Positions 50,987 to 63,691 of a stretch of 64,000 nt of DNA are shown one piece after another. How positions within the stretch are numbered: the stretch's first letter is position 1; each line of letters starts with the position of its first letter. A program made the position numbers and the translations under genes. Under the pieces are notes generated by a model. The model was given only the letters and a program-made list of their open reading frames with translations. It did no database searches and was not told the DNA's origin. The DNA is from Synechococcales cyanobacterium VAR_4_metabat_354 (GTDB taxonomy: Bacteria > Cyanobacteriota > Cyanobacteriia > Cyanobacteriales > Chamaesiphonaceae), in contig JANOQI010000057.1 of the NCBI GenBank assembly GCA_031414775.1, forward strand, positions 1 to 64,000. The letters are read 5' to 3'.

Positions 50987-51787
50987 ATGGCCACTGCAAA
51001 CGCTGCTACCCCCGCTGCCGACAATCGCAACACGGAATCAATATCCTTATTGATGACCTATCACGAAAAACCGAGTGTCCCGGTTCGCAACAAATTAGTC
51101 CTACTCAATGCTGGTTTAGTTCGACAAGTAGCCCATCGTTTGAGTCGCCAGTGTGTAGAAAATTACCAAGATTTAGAACAAATTGGTTACTTAGGCTTGA
51201 TTCGAGCGATCGAGCGATTCAATCCTTATCAAGGCTGTGCCTTTAGCTCCTTTGCCATCCCCTACATTCGCGGCGAAATTCTGCACTTTTTACGGGATCG
51301 GAGCAGTGCCGTCAAGATTCCCCGCCGCTGGCAAGAACTAAAAAGAGAAGGCGAAAAAATGCGGCAACATCTCACCTTAATTCTCGATCGGAAGCCCAGC
51401 GATGTCGAAATTGCTGATGCCCTGCAAGTTACCATTGAAGAATGGTGCGCAGCCCAAGCCGCTGATCGCAACCGTCAAACTTTGAGCTTAGATGCCACGA
51501 TCGGTCACATGATGGATTATCCAGTAACTTTAGGTGATAGTCTTCCTGATATTTATGAACAGAATCGGCAACATGTAGAAGAAGAACGTCAACAGCTGGT
51601 AGGTATGATTAATCAGCTAGAGCGAAAAACGCAACAGGCGATCGAATGTGTCTATATCCAGGGGATGCCGCGAAAAGAAGCTGCCGAAAAAATTGGTGTT
51701 AGTCCCATGACTGTTACCCGCCACTTGCAAAAAGGAGTCAAACAGCTCTCCACCATGATGAATAACAATTGTAGTGTGGCAATCTAG
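50987..51787 (+). CDS. sigF: Group 3 RNA polymerase sigma factor SigF
   Basis: DLEQIGYLGLIRAIERF, IPYIRGEILHFLRD and GVSPMTVTR motifs. Confidence 0.9.
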   Translation: MATANAATPAADNRNTESISLLMTYHEKPSVPVRNKLVLLNAGLVRQVAHRLSRQCVENYQDLEQIGYLGLIRAIERFNPYQGCAFSSFAIPYIRGEILHFLRDRSSAVKIPRRWQELKREGEKMRQHLTLILDRKPSDVEIADALQVTIEEWCAAQAADRNRQTLSLDATIGHMMDYPVTLGDSLPDIYEQNRQHVEEERQQLVGMINQLERKTQQAIECVYIQGMPRKEAAEKIGVSPMTVTRHLQKGVKQLSTMMNNNCSVAI

Positions 51788-51794
51788 CAATTAG

Positions 51795-53879
51795 TTATTT
51801 TTCTGGCTGGAGATCATCCACTCGATCGATAATCGTCAGTTGTCCACCGCGCAAGTCTTGGTAATCAAATTCTACGCGGCGATCAAGAGCATAAGGCTGG
51901 TTTCCCTGTTCATTGCTACGGCGTTTGTTAAATCCAAAAGAACGCGTTGTCAACCGTTGGGAAGCAATACCCTGCTTCAGTAGATAGTTACGAACTGCTA
52001 CTACCCGGCGCATTCCTAAAGCTTGGTTATAGGCTTGGGAGGCACGAGGATCGGTATGACCAGACAAATCCACAGAAATGTAAGGATGGTCTTTTAGCAC
52101 CCGGGCAATTTCGATTAGTACTCGCGCCGAAGCTGGGCTAATAGTAGATTTGTTTAAGGCAAAATGCACATTGCGCGAAATGGTGAGCTTAGTCACAATC
52201 GAGGGTGACACAACTGCCAACGGTGGTGTAGGAACTTCATCTGGCGACTTCACTGTCAAAGAAGTCTCGGCCAGAGCACAATCGGCTGGAACCAGGTAAG
52301 TAGCTTTAGGCTTAACAGCAATACCCGGCATTGTAATCACGATATTATCAGCTGGTTCGGAAGTACCATATTTACGATCGCTGGCAATCGCACTTACAAC
52401 AGTACCAGGCAATAAATTTTGGAAAGTAGCTTGGAAGCGACCCTGGGAGTCGGCCATCACCTTTTTCAAGGGTTGAGATAGCGGCCCATTATTACTATCA
52501 TCGGGGTTGACTTGATAAATTTCCACTTCCGAGCCAGGATCAGCAACTCCATCTAAATTGACGCGATCGCCAATCAGATAAAATTCTGAGGCTAAAAAGC
52601 GGGGGGCATTAATGGCAGCATTCCCAGTATCGGAACGACGATTTTCGGTATTACGCGGCGGGTTAAGGCCATCACCATTTTGGAAGTCTTCGACAGCTTC
52701 GTTCCGATAAGTAATTAGATCAATACTTAAACCAGCGATTTTTTGAAAGCGATTGTTCGTAATCAGGTTGCGCCGGGATAAAGATTCTTCACTGGCAGCA
52801 AAAGCTGTAACGGCCACCCCAGAACCATTTTGGAATTCGATCGAGTTGTTAGTGACCTGGTGATCGTTGCCCATTAAGTAGATAGCCGCTCGCCGTAACC
52901 GCCGACCATTAGATTGCAGATGATTATTAGTAATTTTGACACTGCCAGCAGCAGGCTTAAAGACAAAAATTCCGCTACCATCGTTACCACAAATCAAATT
53001 ACCTTGAATTTTGTTTTGTCTCAAATTGCCTTCTAAGCGAATAGCATCAGGCATGCCTTGCGAGCCATTGCCGAAAATAGCGTTATTGGCAATTAATAAA
53101 TTGTTGGCATTGGCTTGGCTAATAATACCACTAGCACTATGGTATCCGATCGCATTGTGCCGAATCGTGGTGCCTTGGGAATTAAATACATACACCCCAA
53201 AATCGGAGGTTTGGTCAGGGATATTCCGATTAGGTAGAATACCTAGCCAGTTATTTTCAATTAGCACCCGCTGGGGAGCCGACCTGTCATCAAGCTGGGG
53301 GTAATTACTGGTACCGACAAAAATATCTGCAGCTGGGATGTTTTGGGTCGCAGCTTGGTTGCCGACCCGAAAGCCATAGATACTCAGACCAGTCACCGTA
53401 ATATCGTCAGCCATAATCGACAGACCACGATTAATTTGCTGGCCGGGAGCCGGAGTAATTTCCACCGACGGCGTAGCAAAAGTCAGATTTTGAATAGCTG
53501 CTTGGCTACGGCTCTTGCCACCATCGATCGTCACTTTACTCTTAATAATCGCCGGTAGTTCGGAGCGCAGAGCAATCTGGCTTTGGCCTTCAGATAATTG
53601 AAATTCCAGAAGATGACCGTTAGCGTTGGTCAGTACTTTTACTTGAAGTTGTTCAGCAGGGCTGAGTCGATCGAACTGAAGTTGGCCATTACTGATACTG
53701 ATGGCTTCTCTCAAAGTGAGAAATTGATCAGCAACAATTTCATCGCGATTACTGTTGATAGTAATTTTGAAATATTGCTCTGGAGCCGCGAGACTGACTG
53801 ATGGCCATAGTCCTACTAGACTAACCAGAAACAGCCGCGACAGGGAAGAATAACTAATCGGGAATAAAGTGTTTTTCAT
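51795..53879 (-). CDS. Secreted parallel beta-helix protein with C-terminal OmpA-like peptidoglycan-binding domain
   Basis: Signal peptide, LTLREAI motif, Asn/Gly beta-helix repeats, and GHTD...YNQALGMRR...DRRVEF. Confidence 0.85.
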   Translation of the reverse strand: MKNTLFPISYSSLSRLFLVSLVGLWPSVSLAAPEQYFKITINSNRDEIVADQFLTLREAISISNGQLQFDRLSPAEQLQVKVLTNANGHLLEFQLSEGQSQIALRSELPAIIKSKVTIDGGKSRSQAAIQNLTFATPSVEITPAPGQQINRGLSIMADDITVTGLSIYGFRVGNQAATQNIPAADIFVGTSNYPQLDDRSAPQRVLIENNWLGILPNRNIPDQTSDFGVYVFNSQGTTIRHNAIGYHSASGIISQANANNLLIANNAIFGNGSQGMPDAIRLEGNLRQNKIQGNLICGNDGSGIFVFKPAAGSVKITNNHLQSNGRRLRRAAIYLMGNDHQVTNNSIEFQNGSGVAVTAFAASEESLSRRNLITNNRFQKIAGLSIDLITYRNEAVEDFQNGDGLNPPRNTENRRSDTGNAAINAPRFLASEFYLIGDRVNLDGVADPGSEVEIYQVNPDDSNNGPLSQPLKKVMADSQGRFQATFQNLLPGTVVSAIASDRKYGTSEPADNIVITMPGIAVKPKATYLVPADCALAETSLTVKSPDEVPTPPLAVVSPSIVTKLTISRNVHFALNKSTISPASARVLIEIARVLKDHPYISVDLSGHTDPRASQAYNQALGMRRVVAVRNYLLKQGIASQRLTTRSFGFNKRRSNEQGNQPYALDRRVEFDYQDLRGGQLTIIDRVDDLQPEK

Positions 53880-56800
53880 GGCGCTGACGACTCCTGTTTT
53901 TGAACGGGGGTCAACGATGGTTGACTAACATCCCCAGTGACTTGTGACTCTTTCTTGGGAGGATTTAACGGTTGTTGTGAACTAGCATTCTTAGTCACTT
54001 GCGATTCCTGTTGTTGAACAGGGTTCAACTGTTGACGACCAAAGCCGCCAAATAATTCATTAACTTTGACAGTCAAGCCGACATATGGACCATTGGCATT
54101 CCGACCACCGCCATTCGGGTCATCAGATACCCCTAAGCTATAGCCAGCGGAGAGCCGCAAATCGGGAGTGAGATAGTAGCCAGCTTCGATCGCTGCACCA
54201 ACTTCACTTTGGCCAGTGGCGAATTGATTCAACCAGCGCACATCGCCAGTCAGATCCCAGTTGTAGCCGAGGCGGTAAGTAGCCCGCAGTTGACTGATGC
54301 CGATGGCACTTCCCGCTGTCAGGGACTCATCCAGATAACTGGTAGCGTTACGCAAAGCATATTTGCCTGCAAATTCCCATTGCCAGTTCGGGGCATAAAT
54401 TCCTTCTAAGGCTAAGGTGTGGTCTTCGGAGCCAGTACCGACACTGGTTAAGATACTAGTAGGCAACAAGGATGGATTTTTGCGATATTGATAACTGAGA
54501 AAGCCATTAAATTCATCGCTAACTGGATTGCGGAAGGCCATGCCCAGCTTGAGGTTAGTGGTAGCTCCCAATTGGCTAGTAGTTCCCGATCCAGCATCCC
54601 GAATAATCTGGTTGGCGGCACTGGATTGCTGGAATCTAAACAGAGCAGTCAATTCGGGTGTTAGCTTACCCGTGGCACCAGCCGAGATGTTGCTACTGCT
54701 TGCTAAATTAGAATTGCGGTATTCATAACGAGCATTAGCTTGGAAATTGGGGTTGTCGGTATAATTGACAGCCACACCATAACTATCGCCGCTAGTTACC
54801 CCTAATGAAGACGACGTTTGGCCTAAGCTATAGGGTTGAGAATATTGCTGACCAGCACCAGTAGAAACATTCACGCCACCACCAATCACTCGATCGTAAT
54901 TCAGGTCTAGCTTTAAACCAGGACTGAGGACAATCCCTTGCTGCATTCCTACTGATCCGATCGATTGAAACGGACTGAGTGAATAGCGGCCTGTCACCTT
55001 AGTACTAGGAGTCAAACTATAACTACTGTCGAAATCCAAACTCGTATAGCTAGTATCACCATACTGGGCACTGGAAATCAGGTTTTGACTGAGGCCAAGT
55101 TTGATGCCGGGGAAGACTGTCCAGTCAATGCCTAAGGCACTACGGTTCGGATAAACAACATCTTGCTGGCTGCTCAGGTTGGTTTCGTTTTGAGCACGTA
55201 AGGCCAGAGTATTAGTCAGTGGCCAGCTAAAGCGCGATCGAATCTGATCGGAAGACACATTGGCTTGATTTGGATCTAGTGTCAATCGGTCTTGACGATT
55301 ACGATTGACATAATCCACATCTAAAGTGGCGGTGCCAAACCGCTGCTGAACACCAGCTGTAATGGTTCTTAAGTCATTATCAACTAAGCCAGTTGCCGGA
55401 TTGACGGGAGTAAGTAGGTTGGCAATGTTGCCATTAACCAACGGTGGCGCACCCCGATTTTCTTCTCGATCGACCTGTAACTTTAAGCTAGTGCTGTCAC
55501 TCAGCCTGGTTAACAGATCGGCACCGTAGCGAGTTTGACCCGGTACAAAGCTGGTAGTAGCATTATTGGCAAAACCCGCTTCGCTACTGCGTAGATAAGC
55601 ACGACCGGTAGTAGCATCGCTAAATTTAAACTGGCCTTCCAGGCGCATCGCGCTGCCAGTAATGGGGCTACCAGCTCCGGTATTGTTAGAAGATCGAGCA
55701 TATTCAGCCACGATATTACTAGTGGAACCCAGAGAAATCAGGGCATCCGCACCAAGAATACTAAAGTCGCGAATACCTTGATTCTCTTGTGTCCAGCTGG
55801 CACCGATCCAACTTTCTTGACCAGCCGATCGATTGAGATTGTATTGAGCGCGACCACCATAAATATTGCTATTAGTACCGCTAGCATACTGATAAGTAGC
55901 CACTAAACGACGCACTAAGATAGTGCCATTATCAGCAACACTCGTCCGTAATAGAGGACGACGGAGTAAGATGGTACCTCGATCGTAATCTACCTCGTAG
56001 TCTAGACCTCGATTCAGAAACTCTTGTTTAACCACAGTGCCTGGTCGATCGAGTTCTTCTGATTCGATCATCAGGTTTTCGCTACCACCCAAAATCAGGC
56101 GCTGCGACAAGAAATAAATGCCACTGGTGCCATCGGGGGCAATATTGTCCCGCTGGAAGCCCTGGACATTATCACCATAGAAGCCACTTACTAAAAGGTC
56201 ACCAAAGTTGTAGTTTAGTTTAGCACCGTGCAAGTTGCGGTTGGTGGCGGTGAATTGCTGCGATCGATTAGCAAACTCGTTGGTGCCATAATCGCCCCAC
56301 ATGGCCATATTTGGCACATTTCCTAACACCCCAGTAGAGCTTTCTACTTTTAAGAAAACGCTATCGCGGGAAGGAGTCAACACGTCTACTTTAGAAGTAT
56401 CACCATAAACTGGATAAACTTCTTCGCAAGATTGACTACTGTAAGTATCACGAGAGAGTCGATCGTTAGTACCACACAGTTTATTAAGTGGCCGATCGGT
56501 ATTTAGAGCACCAGTTACCGCCCAGTCTCCAATGCGACTAGTGGCAAAAGCCTGGCCTCGTACTTGGAGTTGAGTACTATTATCTCGATCGATCGGCAAG
56601 AATTCGGTGAAAGGCCGATAGTAATCGGTACCCCGCGCTCCCAGGCGGAAGTCTACTACACCAGTAGCGATCGAACTGCGTAAGTTGGTTTCAAACTGTA
56701 CCTGGGCAAAGGCTTCCAGATTTAGGTTGGTGGCACGGACGCGGACTGTTTGGGCATCTAAGCCTGCTCGCAACTTGGCAGTGAATCTTCCTTTTTGGAC

Positions 56801-57496
56801 AGGTACCTGAAATCCCGGTTGATCCTTGTTAGTGTCAATACCGGCAAACTCACCAGCACTAGTATAGAGAGTAACGATGCCATCTTGTTTGGTAACGTTA
56901 CCATTGTCATCGAGTAGCTGACCATCTAAGTTAACTAGAGACCGACCATCAGCTGGAATGCGAGTTTCGGCGCTGTTCAGTTGGATCTTAGTTGGTGTCC
57001 CGGTTACTTGGATCGTAGTGGTGGATACTTCGCCTTGGCTGGTTTTGGCGGTAACAGTATTTTTACCAGCACCGAGGGATACCCCATACCAAGTCTGGGT
57101 AATTAGCTTAGTGCGGCTATCAGTTTCGGTACGACCAATTAGTTTACTATCGACTGGTTGATTGTTGACTTTTAGCTCAACTGTGCTACCAACTTGATAT
57201 TGTAAAACGACGGTAGTCGCTGGAATATCTAAGACACTATTGGGGGTAGGAGCCAGAATCTGGACGGCTGGCGAACGCTGATTTTCAGGAGCGGGCGGTG
57301 CTGGCGCTGTTCCTACAGGAACAACTATAGTAGGTGTAGCTGGTGAAATATTTTGTTCAGCTGGGGCTGACGATTTCACTGGTGCCACGGCATCAGTTTG
57401 AGCAAGGGCAGGGTTGACTAGTAGCAGTCCGAGGCTACTAATTGCTGTACCCAGGCATAAAGCTCTGAGCATTGTGACTATCAGTTGATGCTGCAT
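53876..57496 (-). CDS. Large outer-membrane protein (N-terminal Ig-like domains plus predicted large beta-barrel)
   Basis: Signal peptide, IPADGRS Ig-like motif, and a long region of alternating amphipathic strands ending YVGLTVKVNELF. Confidence 0.75.
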   Translation of the reverse strand: MQHQLIVTMLRALCLGTAISSLGLLLVNPALAQTDAVAPVKSSAPAEQNISPATPTIVVPVGTAPAPPAPENQRSPAVQILAPTPNSVLDIPATTVVLQYQVGSTVELKVNNQPVDSKLIGRTETDSRTKLITQTWYGVSLGAGKNTVTAKTSQGEVSTTTIQVTGTPTKIQLNSAETRIPADGRSLVNLDGQLLDDNGNVTKQDGIVTLYTSAGEFAGIDTNKDQPGFQVPVQKGRFTAKLRAGLDAQTVRVRATNLNLEAFAQVQFETNLRSSIATGVVDFRLGARGTDYYRPFTEFLPIDRDNSTQLQVRGQAFATSRIGDWAVTGALNTDRPLNKLCGTNDRLSRDTYSSQSCEEVYPVYGDTSKVDVLTPSRDSVFLKVESSTGVLGNVPNMAMWGDYGTNEFANRSQQFTATNRNLHGAKLNYNFGDLLVSGFYGDNVQGFQRDNIAPDGTSGIYFLSQRLILGGSENLMIESEELDRPGTVVKQEFLNRGLDYEVDYDRGTILLRRPLLRTSVADNGTILVRRLVATYQYASGTNSNIYGGRAQYNLNRSAGQESWIGASWTQENQGIRDFSILGADALISLGSTSNIVAEYARSSNNTGAGSPITGSAMRLEGQFKFSDATTGRAYLRSSEAGFANNATTSFVPGQTRYGADLLTRLSDSTSLKLQVDREENRGAPPLVNGNIANLLTPVNPATGLVDNDLRTITAGVQQRFGTATLDVDYVNRNRQDRLTLDPNQANVSSDQIRSRFSWPLTNTLALRAQNETNLSSQQDVVYPNRSALGIDWTVFPGIKLGLSQNLISSAQYGDTSYTSLDFDSSYSLTPSTKVTGRYSLSPFQSIGSVGMQQGIVLSPGLKLDLNYDRVIGGGVNVSTGAGQQYSQPYSLGQTSSSLGVTSGDSYGVAVNYTDNPNFQANARYEYRNSNLASSSNISAGATGKLTPELTALFRFQQSSAANQIIRDAGSGTTSQLGATTNLKLGMAFRNPVSDEFNGFLSYQYRKNPSLLPTSILTSVGTGSEDHTLALEGIYAPNWQWEFAGKYALRNATSYLDESLTAGSAIGISQLRATYRLGYNWDLTGDVRWLNQFATGQSEVGAAIEAGYYLTPDLRLSAGYSLGVSDDPNGGGRNANGPYVGLTVKVNELFGGFGRQQLNPVQQQESQVTKNASSQQPLNPPKKESQVTGDVSQPSLTPVQKQESSAP

Positions 57497-57499
57497 GAC

Positions 57500-59158
57500 T
57501 TATTTGACCTCACGCGCGGTAGGTGTAACGCCAAAGTTCATACGAGCTATTCCACCTGGTGCTAGTTTTACTAATCGCGATCGACTGTTTCGTTCGCTAA
57601 AATATAAGTTGGGAGCAGGGCTGTATCCGGGTAGGCTGCTGAGGTCTAGTGCGCCAGTCCGATAACCAGCGACGACTGATTGCACGGAGAACAGGCCATT
57701 GGGATCGGTAGTGATTCGGTTGCCATCATCCATGAAGATGACGGCGTTAGGAATACCGGGTTCGTTGCCCTGTTGTTGGCCATCGAAGTTTTTATCGACG
57801 AAGACACGGCCAATGAGGGTGCCGGTATCACGAATCAAACCTGGGCGAATACTCAATGTATGAGTAGCCGGACCATCAATTAGAACAGTAATATTGCTAT
57901 TATTATTGGCACTACTAACGTTATTGTAAGTACCGCTCAAGGTGGCAAGATTAAGACCAGTACCACGAATGGCATCTGTGCCTAAAGTGACGGCGTAGAC
58001 CAAATCAACAACCTTTCCAGCAGGAATGACAAATTTAGGTGCGCCGACACTACTACACAAACCATTAGCTATAGTTATCGGTACGAGCAGAGCTGTTACA
58101 GGAGTAGTCCCGATCTGGAAGCAAGCAATATTGCCTTCTTGCTTCAGAGTAACTGGCTCAGTCCTCAGACCAAAAGGAGTTGTACTACCAGGAAGAATCC
58201 TGTCATCGTACCATTGAGCCTTAATCGAATTCGGACGTATCGACATCCCGAGAGGTAAAGTATCTGTAACTATTGGGTTTAAAATATCATCAGGAGAATT
58301 ATTCTTGAGGGCAATGCGATAAACTACGGTATCACCTACTTCAGCAGTAGCTCGATCGGCACTTTTAGTAATCTTGGCAGGTTGGCTGTCACATACTCCA
58401 ATCCCAACCAAAGCGACTCTCGCCGCATCACTGACATCCACCACAACATTTTGGGTAACTCCCTCAGTAGTACTAAGCGGTTTGCCATCGAGAGAAGTAG
58501 CTCTGTAACTCAAGATACCGCCATTAAAGCCAGTAATATCTATCCGGACGCGACGTTCACCATAAGTGGAACCAGCTGGTGTTTTAACGATGAGAATATA
58601 GCTCTTGCCGATCGCAATTTGGCTCCGATTAAAAAGGAAGTTGTATCGACCTTCACCATCGGGATCGAGCGGGTATGGATTAATGTTGTCAAGGTTCGGT
58701 GGAATACGATCTTGCTGAGGAGAGCCGGCAGTGGAAGTAAGCTGTAATAAAGTAGTGGGGTCTAGATTGTTAGGTGCTACATTGTACAATCCAACAGAGA
58801 AGTCTTTATAACTAGATAAGCGTTCACCCTGACAGCCTGTGATAATACCCAGTGGATCGATTAATCCAGAAGGATCAGCGATAACTTTATTGCTAACACC
58901 CTCGATTAGGGTGTTTGGATTACCTGGATCGACGTATTGGTAATCAGCTTCGTTGATAATTTTTGGTGGTGGTGGCGGATCTACTATGGGTGGGTTATTT
59001 TGAGCGATCGAAGGCTGAGTAGAAACCAAAGTGGCCAGAACCAGCCCCGTGACACAATTTTTAAATAAATGAGATTTTGGCCGAAAGGGCTGGAATCTGG
59101 ACACGAGATTATTCCTGTAATAATTAATCGATGGGAGCTTTCGAGGGGAACCCCCCAT
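57500..59158 (-). CDS. Secreted DUF11 plus SdrD-B-like domain protein
   Basis: KITKSADRATAEVGDTVVYRI...IVTDTLP (DUF11) and GRVFVDKNFDG...EPGIPNA (SdrD B-like). True start probably downstream of 59158. Confidence 0.8.
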   Translation of the reverse strand: MGGSPRKLPSINYYRNNLVSRFQPFRPKSHLFKNCVTGLVLATLVSTQPSIAQNNPPIVDPPPPPKIINEADYQYVDPGNPNTLIEGVSNKVIADPSGLIDPLGIITGCQGERLSSYKDFSVGLYNVAPNNLDPTTLLQLTSTAGSPQQDRIPPNLDNINPYPLDPDGEGRYNFLFNRSQIAIGKSYILIVKTPAGSTYGERRVRIDITGFNGGILSYRATSLDGKPLSTTEGVTQNVVVDVSDAARVALVGIGVCDSQPAKITKSADRATAEVGDTVVYRIALKNNSPDDILNPIVTDTLPLGMSIRPNSIKAQWYDDRILPGSTTPFGLRTEPVTLKQEGNIACFQIGTTPVTALLVPITIANGLCSSVGAPKFVIPAGKVVDLVYAVTLGTDAIRGTGLNLATLSGTYNNVSSANNNSNITVLIDGPATHTLSIRPGLIRDTGTLIGRVFVDKNFDGQQQGNEPGIPNAVIFMDDGNRITTDPNGLFSVQSVVAGYRTGALDLSSLPGYSPAPNLYFSERNSRSRLVKLAPGGIARMNFGVTPTAREVK

Positions 59159-59164
59159 AAGTAA

Positions 59165-59671
59165 TTAGCGAATCCGAACTTCGTAGCTCAAATTGCTTTG
59201 AGACCGGGGTGCAACACTACTGGTAAAAGCCCAACGGACGTTGGTATAGTTGCCAGCAGCTGCTGGCTTTTTATCGAACATTGGTTGTGCGCTATAGCTT
59301 CTACCACCATCAGTACTAAAAGTCAGTTGTGCGCCTTTAACAGGAGTAGCAGAATTCAGGACGTAGGACGTGCCGGGGCGAATTTTCTGGTTGAGAATTA
59401 GTTTGTTCACTGGCTTGGTGCTAACGTTGTTGGCAGCAATTCGATAGACAATGACATCACCAGGCTTAGCACTAGCAACGGATACTAGCTTGAAGCCTTT
59501 TTTATCAGCAACTTTTTTGAATTGAGAAAGCTTCAGCTGAATAGATTTCTTGGCGGCTACTTGCGCTCCTACTGGCTGAGTGAATTGGCCGATAACTGGC
59601 AAATTACCGCTGACTAAAACAGTAGTGGATAGTGCCATCATGGCGATGGTGGTAGAAAGTAAACGTTTCAT
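59165..59671 (-). CDS. Small secreted DUF11-like single-domain protein
   Basis: Signal peptide from MKRLLST; AKPGDVIVYRI, IRPGTSYV and YTNVRW...LSYEVRIR. Confidence 0.8.
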   Translation of the reverse strand: MKRLLSTTIAMMALSTTVLVSGNLPVIGQFTQPVGAQVAAKKSIQLKLSQFKKVADKKGFKLVSVASAKPGDVIVYRIAANNVSTKPVNKLILNQKIRPGTSYVLNSATPVKGAQLTFSTDGGRSYSAQPMFDKKPAAAGNYTNVRWAFTSSVAPRSQSNLSYEVRIR

Positions 59672-59856
59672 ACGTGGGATTACTCCGGTATAGATGTAAA
59701 AGGTCGGGCACAGCCCATGCAAACTAGTATTCCCAGAGAGGATGCTAGACTTGCTATGGCTTAACGGGCAAGAATAAAAATATATTGGGGCTATGAGTAA
59801 TAGCCGTTTTATTTATGTACTTAATTAATTATTTACTGGTCTAGATCTAGAAGGCA

Positions 59857-59893: not shown

Positions 59894-62362
59894 CTAGTTC
59901 AATTTACGTTTGAAGCTAAATGTACCAGTGCTACCAGGAGCAACTACAGTTGTGACAGTATCAACATATTTAGTGATGTCAGTAGCAGCAGTTGTACCAG
60001 ATTGGTCAACCGAAGTAGTACCACCAGCTGGGTCTTTAAACAAACCAATGGTGGAGGTAGTGTCTGGATCAACCGCTGAACCTACGACGTTACTAGTATC
60101 TAGCGCGCCGTTACTATCAGTATCTTTAGCCCAAGTATTAGTACCAGTAGTACCATTCTCAGTAATTACTAAATTGGCAGCCTTCATGACAGAGCTACCA
60201 GTACCAACTAACTTATCCGAAATATTTTCGTAAGTAATGCGATACTCAATGATATTGCCGGAAGCTGGCTTCTTATCGGCAGTGCTGAAGTTAACGTCAG
60301 CTGGTAAAACTGCTGGGCCGGTGCCTTGCAAAATACGAGTTTCTTTGGTCAGTTTGACGAAACCGGTGTAAACACGATCGATCGTTTTGTTAGTAGCTGT
60401 TGGTGCTGCCAGTGCAATATCCCCACCAGTAGGAGCAGTTACAGTACCACCAGTAAAGGCATTAATTACAACAGGGAAACTTTCTAGTGGCTTGGTGGTA
60501 GCATCTTGAGCCAGGTCAACGCTGACTTGGTATGCAGCAAGCGCATCAGGTGCCACAGCATTTAAGGTAACTGGGTTAGTAGCGCTAATGGGGCCATTGG
60601 CATTACTACCAACACCAGAAAGTGGCTTGAAAGTAAAACCAGTAGCAGTGGCTACATAAGTAGCTTCTTGACCATTAGCAGAAATTTTAACTTCAGTGCC
60701 TACTGGTAATGGATCACCAGCTAATAATTCTGGCAACAGAGAAATGTTAGCAGCAGCACCACCAGTATTTCTGACAGTATTGTTGAAGCCAGCAGCAGCT
60801 GGATCAAAAGTAGCCGTTGGTGCAGTACCAGCAGGTACGGTGGTGGACTTATTCGTAAAGTCATCGTTAGTGTTAGTTGGACCAATTGCTTCTGGTACAC
60901 CTACTGGACCATTCAACAGGGAATTTGTTGCTGCAGCAGTGAACGTATATTTGTATTCGTTGATTTCACCAGCAAGGCTACCAACAGCACTGTTGTCGTT
61001 AGCAGTATCAACCACAAACGCCGGATCAGCTACACCAGTGGTAATAGCACTGGAGCTAGGAGCAGCAGGCGTAATGGGAGTAGCCGAATCGAAGTTGTTA
61101 GGAGTTTGGTCACCAGATTCGTCATAAACAATCGCAGTTGGTGAACCACCAGCAGTAGTACCAAAAGCTTGTGCCATACTATCGATCGTGTAGGTAGTAG
61201 CAGTAGGCGCAACACCACTAGTGACAACCTTGAAGTTGAAACCAGTAACTTCGGCACCAGGCGCTACAACAGCAGCATTAGTATCGGTGATAAAGCCTAC
61301 GCGCTTGTAAACTGCTGCTGGATCAAAGGTTGTTACCCAGGCAGTAGTCGGATCGTTAGCAAATGTGCTGGTTGAAGTAGTTGTGTAAACTGCTGTCCAG
61401 CCAATTGGTGCAGTCGCTGCTGCGGCTAACTTAGTACCATCAGGAATTGCACTAGAAACCAAGATCCGGTTAACGGTGCTAGGGCCAGAGCCAGTGTCTA
61501 CTGTCAGAGCTGAACCGGCTAAAGCACTAGGAGTAATACCAGAGTTAGTAATATCTGTGCTCGCAACTTTCAAACCAAGGCCGTAGCTGATTACATCATC
61601 AGATAAGTTGGCTGGAGTAGCATTATCACTAACGCCAGTACGAGTTTCAGTGACAGTGGCCAAGGCAATATTCTTGACTACGGTACCAATATTAACTGAT
61701 TGAGTCGCACTACTTTCGCGTTGACCGTTGGCTGGAGCACCACCAGTAGTATTAACGTTATTGGGGTTACCATCAGCTACCAGGGGCTGGTTTGGTTGGT
61801 CACTAGGAGTGTTACCTAATTGAACGGCAATAGTAGAGCCAGTACCATTATTAACAGTCACTTCTGCGCGGACTTGGACAACACCACCGGCAGCAACGTT
61901 CGGTACATCTACACCAGCTGCTGGTACAGGCTTCCAGATATTATCAGCAGGGTCTAGGTACTCCAATTTGTTAAAAGTACCAGGACCGGTCACAGTGGGC
62001 TGACCAGGAATGCGTATAGTAGTGGAAGTGTTACCAACGTTGGTAACAGTGTAGTCAAACTCTAGCTTGTCGCCAACAGTAACAGCACCACCAGGGTTAG
62101 TTTTATTAACGATACCGCTACCGGAAACATCAATACCGGCAACATCAGCAACAATCACCTTAACTTCGTTAGAAGTAGCGTTGATGGGAGTACCGGGGTT
62201 ACCTGGATCATCATAGCTAGCAGTAGCCGTGTTGGAAATAGCAGTACCGGCAGCTGTCTCAGCCAACACTGGTGCCACTAACTGTAAAAGACCACCACTC
62301 ACCAAAAGAGTAACCAGAAGAGGGCGAGAGTATTTCATCATATTAATATTGTTTACTTTCAT
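59894..62362 (-). CDS. Large secreted Thr/Ala/Gly/Asn-rich multi-Ig (DUF11-related) protein, candidate major fibre subunit
   Basis: Signal peptide (PVLA|ET), AGTAISNTATASY N-terminus, and repeated Y-T-V-T-N-x-G-N / NTVRNTG / IIEYRITYEN Ig motifs. Confidence 0.8.
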   Translation of the reverse strand: MKVNNINMMKYSRPLLVTLLVSGGLLQLVAPVLAETAAGTAISNTATASYDDPGNPGTPINATSNEVKVIVADVAGIDVSGSGIVNKTNPGGAVTVGDKLEFDYTVTNVGNTSTTIRIPGQPTVTGPGTFNKLEYLDPADNIWKPVPAAGVDVPNVAAGGVVQVRAEVTVNNGTGSTIAVQLGNTPSDQPNQPLVADGNPNNVNTTGGAPANGQRESSATQSVNIGTVVKNIALATVTETRTGVSDNATPANLSDDVISYGLGLKVASTDITNSGITPSALAGSALTVDTGSGPSTVNRILVSSAIPDGTKLAAAATAPIGWTAVYTTTSTSTFANDPTTAWVTTFDPAAVYKRVGFITDTNAAVVAPGAEVTGFNFKVVTSGVAPTATTYTIDSMAQAFGTTAGGSPTAIVYDESGDQTPNNFDSATPITPAAPSSSAITTGVADPAFVVDTANDNSAVGSLAGEINEYKYTFTAAATNSLLNGPVGVPEAIGPTNTNDDFTNKSTTVPAGTAPTATFDPAAAGFNNTVRNTGGAAANISLLPELLAGDPLPVGTEVKISANGQEATYVATATGFTFKPLSGVGSNANGPISATNPVTLNAVAPDALAAYQVSVDLAQDATTKPLESFPVVINAFTGGTVTAPTGGDIALAAPTATNKTIDRVYTGFVKLTKETRILQGTGPAVLPADVNFSTADKKPASGNIIEYRITYENISDKLVGTGSSVMKAANLVITENGTTGTNTWAKDTDSNGALDTSNVVGSAVDPDTTSTIGLFKDPAGGTTSVDQSGTTAATDITKYVDTVTTVVAPGSTGTFSFKRKLN

Positions 62363-62785: not shown

Positions 62786-63691
62786 CTATATTTCCTGAGA
62801 CTGGATGGCTTGGACTCGATCGTTAGCGAAGCGTTCCACCTCGGAAATTGATAGCTCTGTAATTGAGGCAACATCTTCTACAGACATACCCTTTTTCAAC
62901 ATTTTCAGTGCAATCTCTTTTTGAGTTTCCTGCTGGCCGCGCTTAAAACCAATTTTTTCAACACTGGTAACGTAAGTCATCTTTTTATCCTCTTCGTAAG
63001 CTTTAAAGTCATTCCAAAAACTGTTACTCAATCCTTCAGGCAAAACCAGAATCCAGTCAATGAACTTAAACAAATCTACTACCTGGCTTCTATTGTAGCC
63101 CCTTTCATAGAGTCCCCTCACCAGCTGAAACTTCCAATTCTTCCGCTCCTGATCCTTACTTTTCATCTCCTGCGCCTTTAGGTGAGCCATCACCACAACC
63201 GCAAACGGGTTGGCATTAGACTCCAATTCTTCCCATTGCTCTTGGTAATCTAGCAACTTCACTGCGGTGAAATTAAATTCCAACGAAGAGCCTGGAGCAG
63301 TTAATAAATGCTCTTTCGGTCGCCAGGTAGAATTAGAATCACACAAGATAGCTAAACTGCTGGGTAATTGATTGAACCTATCATAGATACGCATCGCATA
63401 GGTCAGCATCCTCTCTTCAAAGTTTTTCTCTTTGCTAGCTTGGATTTCCAAGTGCAAAAGTAGCATCAAAGACTTACCCCGCCTGAGCTTCACCTCCACC
63501 AACTGGTCGGCGTATCTCTTACCCACTTCAGCATTGGGCGAGAGCTGCTGAAACTCCTTGTCTAAAAAGACTGGCGGCGATTGCCAATCAATTAATTGTG
63601 CAATCATGGGAAAGAAGAATTCGATGGCTTCTGGAAAATATGCACGCAGCATCGACTTCCAAGGGGAATCTGCATCATTAAATTTAGCCAC
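62786..63691 (-). CDS. Rpn/YhgA-like putative transposase or nuclease (cyanobacterial multicopy family)
   Basis: DSPWK, FLDKEFQQ, HLEIQ, NPFAVVVMAHL and MTYVTSVE motifs. Confidence 0.82.
   Translation of the reverse strand: MAKFNDADSPWKSMLRAYFPEAIEFFFPMIAQLIDWQSPPVFLDKEFQQLSPNAEVGKRYADQLVEVKLRRGKSLMLLLHLEIQASKEKNFEERMLTYAMRIYDRFNQLPSSLAILCDSNSTWRPKEHLLTAPGSSLEFNFTAVKLLDYQEQWEELESNANPFAVVVMAHLKAQEMKSKDQERKNWKFQLVRGLYERGYNRSQVVDLFKFIDWILVLPEGLSNSFWNDFKAYEEDKKMTYVTSVEKIGFKRGQQETQKEIALKMLKKGMSVEDVASITELSISEVERFANDRVQAIQSQEI

Follow-up and report, generated by a model that had tools for sequence, protein, structure and literature searches.

The 822-aa gene and its locus

The first 64,000 nucleotides of contig JANOQI010000057.1 from Synechococcales cyanobacterium VAR_4_metabat_354 (the window) contain a conserved operon of five genes for hypothetical proteins (Table 1). 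The first gene encodes a secreted protein of 822 amino acids (aa), the subject of this study. A preliminary description of the DNA proposed that an immunoglobulin (Ig) domain of this protein is split between its two ends. Subunits could then polymerise head to tail by donor-strand complementation, possibly with Lys-Asn isopeptide bonds between them. The open reading frame (ORF) and every motif quoted there are present. The interpretation remains a proposal, one that computation supports well.

The frame stops directly after N822 and may start at M1, M8 or M9. The signal peptide, common to the homologs, has a basic N-region, a hydrophobic stretch and an A-x-A site. Behind this site we placed, by eye, the predicted mature start E35 (62260). 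A hairpin of 38 residues, which extends to V71 (62150), is followed by four domains, D1 to D4. In the AlphaFold2 model of the mature protein the mean pLDDT (predicted local distance difference test score) is 88, and the first 40 residues form a two-strand hairpin at 68-75. The sole Pfam match above cut-off is DUF7925 at residues 234-424 (182 bits versus a gathering cut-off of 26.5). A sequence search of the PDB matched the family to no chain at E up to 5, and Foldseek with the whole model returned only uninformative multi-Ig matches. The closest named homologs are cyanobacterial. We found neither a C-terminal LPxTG sorting signal nor a membrane anchor; the protein stops on the last strand of D4.

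Table 1. Positions of the 822-aa gene, its parts and the neighbouring features in the window.
Feature	Position	Strand	Remarks
822-aa secreted protein	59894..62362	minus	proposed major shaft subunit; signal peptide, hairpin, D1, D2, D3, split D4
Signal peptide	62261..62362	minus	residues 1-34
Donor hairpin	62147..62260	minus	residues 35-72; last two strands of the CLIPPER/CnaA fold
D1	61676..62146	minus	complete CLIPPER-like Ig domain without isopeptide Lys (Lys site judged by eye)
D2	60932..61675	minus	DUF7925 (PF25546), complete CnaA-like domain; missing from some homologs
D3	60368..60931	minus	complete Ig domain
D4	59897..60367	minus	split acceptor without last two strands; holds K673 and E735
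N44 codon	62231..62233	minus	
K673 codon	60344..60346	minus	
E735 codon	60158..60160	minus	
RNA stem-loop	59855..59886	minus	14 pairs, directly after the 822-aa stop; z -4.1, 0/200 shuffles
185-aa secreted protein	59165..59722	minus	split domain, acceptor half only, without Lys or acid (Q67, Q112)
552-aa protein	57500..59158	minus	N-terminal donor hairpin (N69), complete CLIPPER domain, SdrD_B-like end; candidate base or terminator
1206-aa protein	53876..57496	minus	N-terminal Ig domains and probable large outer-membrane barrel; candidate export and anchor platform
694-aa protein	51795..53879	minus	beta-helix, Ig and OmpA peptidoglycan-binding domains; accessory

The C-terminal domain lacks its last two strands

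A CLIPPER/CnaA domain of the 822-aa protein is split between its two ends. The three domains that precede D4 are complete. With the hairpin excluded, D1 (72-226; model residues 38-192) covers residues 18-140 of the CLIPPER structure 9IFR (Z 9.4, root-mean-square deviation (rmsd) 2.9, 113 aligned). In the structural alignment of the model D2 covers 4HSS 182-325, and D3 (model 447-634) aligns to 6KJK 28-159 (Z 10.3, rmsd 3.1, 130 aligned). D4 covers 9IFR 18-109 only (Z 7.2, rmsd 2.4, 91 aligned). Its matches to solved CnaA domains stop before the isopeptide Asn in each case: at 3OPU 1329-1462 versus N1469, at 2X9Z 187-307 versus N318 and at 4HSS 182-289 versus N299 (Z 6.1-6.8, rmsd 2.1-2.8, 94-105 aligned). 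D4 thus ends 7 (3OPU), 11 (2X9Z) or 10 (4HSS) residues short of that Asn, which bears out the earlier statement that the C-terminal domain stops where a hairpin should begin. Provided that the first strand is ungapped, K673 is in register with K1334 (3OPU), K193 (2X9Z) and K187 (4HSS). The isopeptide residue numbers are those given in the available part of PMC12617251.

The truncation is shared among homologs. From 150 representatives at 50% identity, 136 could be aligned across both ends (the diverse set). Because 92 of these terminate exactly 3 residues past R819, and the remaining tails are at most 37 residues long, the missing strands are more than a chance loss. The preliminary description had named a C-terminal domain that folds completely on its own as evidence against its proposal. 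This did not occur, as D4 lacks its last two strands; that D4 cannot fold alone is not established either, since the remainder is modelled at pLDDT 94.

Many CnaA pilin domains are among the fold matches of D4; TasA is absent from the 50 matches listed for D4 and for the whole model. D4 has no Pfam DUF11 match, and its HHalign probability to the DUF11 domain of the 552-aa neighbour is 46% over 20 columns. Look-alikes in the Atlas named DUF11 reach 0.90, and Foldseek on D4 gave no match at E up to 0.001. Middling in Z, the assignment of D4 as a CnaA-like Ig sandwich is supported mainly by the residue register and by the natural fusions described below. TTHA1873 (7WRK) was considered as a second split acceptor and rejected: D1 covers 7WRK to residue 175, D4 just to 146.

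The N-terminal hairpin belongs to D4

We modelled residues 35-229 as a complex with residues 662-822. The score was 0.85 in three runs, while the best control reached 0.00. Such a score was attained by 116 of 157 solved complexes and by 2 of 215 mismatched pairs. Contact agreement was 97% or higher, and the pLDDT of the partner did not fall below 87. Though D1 was present, the interface consists almost entirely of the hairpin and includes N44, K673 and E735. The first hairpin strand lies against residues 731-734, the second against 671-673 and 696-699. The complementation anticipated in the preliminary description was hence obtained in the model.

HHalign of the hairpin against a complete DUF11 domain or D1 to D4 gave no significant match, and the identity of the hairpin therefore rests on structure and on natural fusions. 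In seven distinct large proteins the last Asn of D4 leads directly into the hairpin: P0125, P0128, P0130, P0163 (L083), P0267 (L075, Runella defluvii), L058 (Floridaenema evergladense) and L082. The hairpin Asn lies exactly 10 residues on from the last Asn of D4, the same count as from E35 to N44. Only in these fusions do all three residues of the presumed bond lie in one continuous domain; D4 of the 822-aa protein ends before the Asn strand. Together with the complex model, the fusions confirm the mature N-terminus as a hairpin of the type that ends a DUF11-like domain.

The hairpin could instead be part of D1. We rejected this candidate, which the preliminary description had named as a refuting result: D1 is complete without the hairpin, the model places the hairpin in D4, and proteins without D1 exist in nature. 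P0267, L058 and L082 have no D1 behind the fused D4-hairpin, and P0288 (441 aa) consists of hairpin, D3 and D4, with D1 and D2 absent.

Circularly permuted subunit pieces (D3-D4-hairpin, with or without D1 and D2) serve as stalk modules in giant adhesins (L075:10001-11185, L058:10001-11130, L082, L083, P0125, P0128, P0130). The fusion protein of Runella, a genus that we take to belong to the Bacteroidota, carries a secretion-sorting C-terminal domain, and we read it as domain capture across phyla.

A conserved Lys, acid and Asn

A close alignment was built from the mature 822-aa protein and 98 of 119 listed homologs; the other 21, one of them partial and 20 mostly near-identical, were omitted. 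N44, K673 and E735 are present in all 99 rows. In the diverse set 133 of 136 homologs have the triad, 124 as N/K/E and 9 as N/K/D, and these same 133 share the CLIPPER/CnaA layout: Lys in the first strand, acid in the third, Asn in the penultimate. Two of the three misses are permuted fusions misplaced by the alignment; the third has Ser for Asn. No Lys column is kept better than that of K673 (0.99); the isopeptide Lys of D2 comes next (0.82).

N65, a second Asn in the hairpin, is disfavoured as the bonding residue. Solved domains place the Asn 7-11 residues past the end of D4, where N44 lies at 10 and N65 at 31. The first Asn of the related hairpin in the 552-aa protein is kept in 76/76 loci, the second is variable. 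Register and this conservation together favour N44 as the bonding Asn. The earlier choice of residues (the K of LTK, the E of VITE and the N of ISN) agrees with the register and with the conservation of the triad.

D2 is different in this respect. In the available part of PMC12617251, Costa et al. include DUF7925 (type example Q8YS00) among the domains for which an intramolecular Lys/Asp/Asn triad is predicted. In the 822-aa protein this triad is replaced by E239, S304 and S395. Within the family it serves as an internal control for the triad of D4. It is retained completely in 57 rows of the close alignment, lost completely in 40 (the 822-aa protein included) and partial in 2; 112 of 132 diverse homologs retain it.

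Subunits vary in composition. Short natural forms of about 570-610 aa apparently lack D2 (P0151, P0182, P0184, P0187, P0194, P0200, P0221, P0229). P0301 is a 302-aa form without hairpin and without Lys. At L004:9902-14864 two full-length major-subunit paralogs stand in tandem ahead of the 185-aa gene.

Partner proteins with one half of the split domain

Related loci were taken from the best 80 of 527 matches, mostly from Nostocales, of which 79 loci were used. The order 822-185-552-1206 is kept in 70 of the 72 loci with at least 7 kb downstream, and both exceptions are fusion proteins. The flank rule excluded 7 of 79 loci, one of them (L009) wrongly, for the genes are present there.

In 77/77 loci the end of the 185-aa protein coincides with that of D4, which it resembles (HHalign 89%). 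At the Lys site it has Ala in 72 of 77 loci and Gln here; at the acid site it has Gln in all 77. A profile search of the PDB returned only 9IFR at E 0.57. From its sequence, the 185-aa protein is predicted to be an acceptor unable to lock.

The 552-aa protein shows the opposite arrangement. Its N-terminal hairpin resembles that of the 822-aa protein (HHalign 96%), and it has no split acceptor. Its DUF11 domain is complete, as noted before, with K265, D299 and N403 each present in 76/76 loci. The earlier picture of the operon was right on this point and overlooked three others: the donor hairpin of the 552-aa protein, the second split acceptor in the 185-aa protein, and the identity of D2 as a DUF7925 domain with its triad lost.

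The 1206-aa protein has weak Pfam Ig matches. Its Atlas look-alikes (0.96-0.98) fall into unnamed and outer-membrane clusters, mostly from Pseudomonadota, and one is a named outer membrane protein. Such likeness points to an outer-membrane barrel as its likely nature. All3289 of Anabaena PCC 7120, described in the available part of PMC9705863 as a 1289-aa protein with a possible outer-membrane anchor, may be a counterpart, as a candidate only. In three Pseudanabaena loci (L011:14715-19832, L017:5943-11102, L021:5760-10979) a barrel-like frame of about 1700 codons has a long C-terminal extension. Similarity to the 694-aa protein was found within the 10-kb flank in 11 of 72 related loci. None of the five operon proteins matched an usher, PapD, Peptidase_M73/TasA or SipW family in Pfam and NCBIfam at E up to 0.1.

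A second cluster lies on contig C36 (G000), at 76267-93525 (L081:2268-19523). All five of its secreted-type genes have a related split acceptor at their end, in which Lys and Asp are present. A hairpin and D1 open two of them; the three without a hairpin carry GEVED, DUF11 or beta-helix domains. The five probably supply tips and adaptors to the same fibre. In one C36 protein, where the minor acceptor is the best stretch, the Pfam DUF11 match does not go beyond position 81 of 114. With a profile built from the five genes, 49 of 79 related loci show a minor-type acceptor gene within the flank, usually directly behind the barrel gene. Among 54 complete ORFs of this type (the five seeds included, one counted twice), all 54 keep Lys and Asp, all 54 end within 1 residue of the profile end, and 50 have no hairpin match. 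A protein whose acceptor brings the full catalytic half, yet which carries no donor, depends on one in trans.

Next to each cluster lies one of two very similar sigma-70 family factors, both presumably SigF-like (50987-51787 (+) in the window and C36:94641-95513 (+) in G000). The pairing could hint at shared regulation. Upstream of the operon, 62786-63691 (minus) encodes an Rpn/YhgA-like PD-(D/E)XK protein with weak Pfam matches, ordinary for cyanobacteria.

A proposed covalently locked fibre and its alternatives

We propose a sortase-free, covalently locked, head-to-tail pilus in a two-membrane bacterium, with the 822-aa protein as its major shaft subunit. We give this reading a probability of roughly 70%. 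Following Sec export and signal cleavage, the N-terminal hairpin of one subunit would supply the two missing strands to D4 of the next, rebuilding the CLIPPER/CnaA domain from two chains. In the rebuilt domain, K673 and E735 of the acceptor would meet N44 of the donor, and an autocatalytic Lys-Asn isopeptide bond would form. Adhesin-like proteins with an acceptor and no hairpin would cap the far end, and two-ended minor subunits would act as adaptors. The order along the fibre would be tip adhesin, adaptors, many 822-aa copies and the hairpin-only 552-aa base beside the probable barrel. Having neither Lys nor acid, the 185-aa acceptor would hold hairpins reversibly, as chaperone or cap. Taken jointly, these roles for the 185-aa protein and for the barrel are somewhat favoured over others.

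Computation shows the split, almost with certainty, along with the way the hairpin fits D4, the conservation of the triad, the one-ended partners and the operon. Partners with a hairpin only or an acceptor only point to pairing between molecules, as tip adhesin, shaft and base. Such pairing into a linear fibre is very probable. Given the pairing, formation of the Lys-Asn bond is probable too.

Several observations weigh against the covalent fibre. The Z-scores of D4 (best 8.7, an adaptin; CLIPPER 7.2) are usual for any Ig fold; in these alignments the informative point is the position where the match ends, not the Z-score. The complex model was built from two pieces of one protein and is blind to cis versus trans; likeness to solved CnaA domains can also let the halves of a split domain pass the complex test. 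In the list of its 25 best contacts, the partners of K673 are residues 64, 65 and 67, and N44 is not one of them. Many structural Asn residues (N65, N108, N111, N658, N713) equal N44 in invariance. With 54-70% identity, the fused modules may go back to a single origin, and the related loci are mostly from Nostocales, so neither set provides independent counts. By profile, the minor acceptors resemble D4 weakly (probability 35%, 29 columns). A strand-periodicity test did not tell the probable barrel of the 1206-aa protein from Ig domains. Finally, Thr replaces the triad Lys in 3 of the 7 fusions, whose hairpin is tethered already; the fold therefore does not need the bond.

This last point opens the best surviving alternative: the same fibre held by strand complementation alone, with the triad kept for packing or the bond slow or partial. 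Oligomers of the N35A variant of BsaA, a clostridial fibre protein, still withstand unheated sodium dodecyl sulfate (SDS), according to the available part of PMC11580942. Against it stand the near-invariant buried Lys and acid in isopeptide register, the 185-aa acceptor, which swaps Lys for Ala or Gln and acid for Gln, and the all-or-none loss of the predicted D2 triad. We regard a purely non-covalent fibre as unlikely.

Alternatively, the hairpin could close on its own D4, or two to three copies could swap hairpins into a ring; the envelope would then contain a cyclised monomer or a small oligomer and no long fibre. The complex model is compatible with cis pairing, and the fusions show the domain working within one chain. 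However, the hairpin joins D1 without a linker, and the two-domain P0288 could hardly close on itself. The monomer model is no more favourable: the hairpin stays at pLDDT 68-75, below the mean of 88, and D4 residues 696-701, which pair with the hairpin in the complex, are not assigned as strand by DSSP. The one-ended partners also require pairing in trans. A closed form is accordingly quite improbable.

Least probable, by a small step, is hetero-pairing only, in which the 822-aa protein is a single adaptor between tip adhesin and 552-aa base, forming a short stalk and no homopolymer: one-ended partners exist for both ends and homo-pairing is a modelled result, yet its own hairpin and D4 fit each other, are the pair fused in nature, and belong to a gene whose expression signals speak for many copies.

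These signals are of two kinds. In codon adaptation the 822-aa gene ranks 15 of 2129 genes, among photosynthesis and chaperonin genes, versus 636-1883 for the barrel, 552-aa and C36 minor genes; the 694-aa gene ranks 173. The genome encodes photosystem and RuBisCO proteins. This codon bias fits a major subunit. The second signal is the stem-loop directly after the 822-aa gene, which may step down expression of the downstream genes. Stem-loops with z<-2 occur downstream of homologs of the 822-aa gene in 40 of 77 cases, of the 185-aa gene in 26 of 77 and of the 552-aa gene in 3 of 75.

Taken further, the covalent fibre would represent an undescribed pilus class. Locking would be enzyme-free through a split CLIPPER domain, a dead acceptor would chaperone the hairpin, the barrel would act as usher for the system, and exchangeable tip adhesins, of which some have their genes elsewhere in the genome, would click on by the same split domain. 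For this full picture the odds are about even.

Occurrence and significance

Counting partial matches, the protein family occurs in 30 of 251 cyanobacterial genomes searched, among them 18 of the 32 genomes from one family. Most known cases of covalent linkage in pili come from single-membrane bacteria, in which the subunits are joined by sortase. If our reading is true, two-membrane bacteria possess a covalent pilus that needs no enzyme and brings its own assembly genes, BsaA being the earlier enzyme-free case. A conserved operon of hypothetical proteins would gain a purpose, and adhesion and mat formation in these cyanobacteria a testable candidate. The pair of hairpin and D4 would also be a natural split-domain ligation system with many natural variants. 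Engineered tag-catcher pairs are comparable systems.

Comparison with known systems

The comparisons below hold for the parts of the cited papers that were available. The closest relative in principle is BsaA, the TasA-family protein of Clostridium perfringens biofilm fibres, for which 'donor-strand exchange and lock' has been described (PMC11580942). As in BsaA, the N-terminal donor carries the Asn (N35 in BsaA) and the acceptor the Lys and Glu (K74 and E56). A sortase-free, autocatalytic intermolecular isopeptide bond joins BsaA subunits and is predicted here by conservation and model. BsaA is TasA/M73-like, comes from a single-membrane organism and is accompanied by a SipW peptidase. In contrast, the present system has a CLIPPER/CnaA fold, a two-strand hairpin as donor, a four-domain subunit and a probable outer-membrane barrel in the operon.

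With CLIPPER (DUF11, PF01345; 9IFR) and DUF7925 (PF25546) D4 shares the fold and the Lys/acid/Asn layout (PMC12617251). Those bonds form within one chain, whereas here the domain is cut between chains just ahead of the Asn strand; the word 'donor' occurs 0 times in the main text of that paper. PMC13297417 merely uses a DUF11 signal peptide.

In chaperone-usher pili (Fim, Pap) an incomplete Ig fold is likewise made whole by a neighbour's N-terminal extension (PMC11821415, PMC9715654); for our system we infer the trans pairing. The gene clusters are also alike, with tip adhesin, adaptors, shaft, terminator, small periplasmic helper and outer-membrane platform, roles which here are predicted from the genes. 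Unlike these pili, our system has a two-strand instead of a one-strand donor, a link that is probably covalent and no match to an usher or PapD family listed for the operon proteins. PapD and FimC donate a strand, whereas the helper here is an acceptor-type domain.

Head-to-tail donor-strand polymers, as proposed here, are also found in archaeal threads (Saci_0406, PMC9715654), tat-fimbriae (PMC11821415) and TLP-1 fibrils (PMC11494351). Their donors are single strands. Threads carry an intermolecular isopeptide-like bond from Asn57 to the N-terminal amine of subunit n+2 (PMC9715654), which is not a Lys-Asn bond. CT pili of Microcystis are described as having a different fold (PMC12397347). Our literature search, which covered little of the subscription journals, found no description of a split-CLIPPER pilus. 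Both working principles, donor-strand complementation and the autocatalytic bond, have precedent; the system as a whole would be new.

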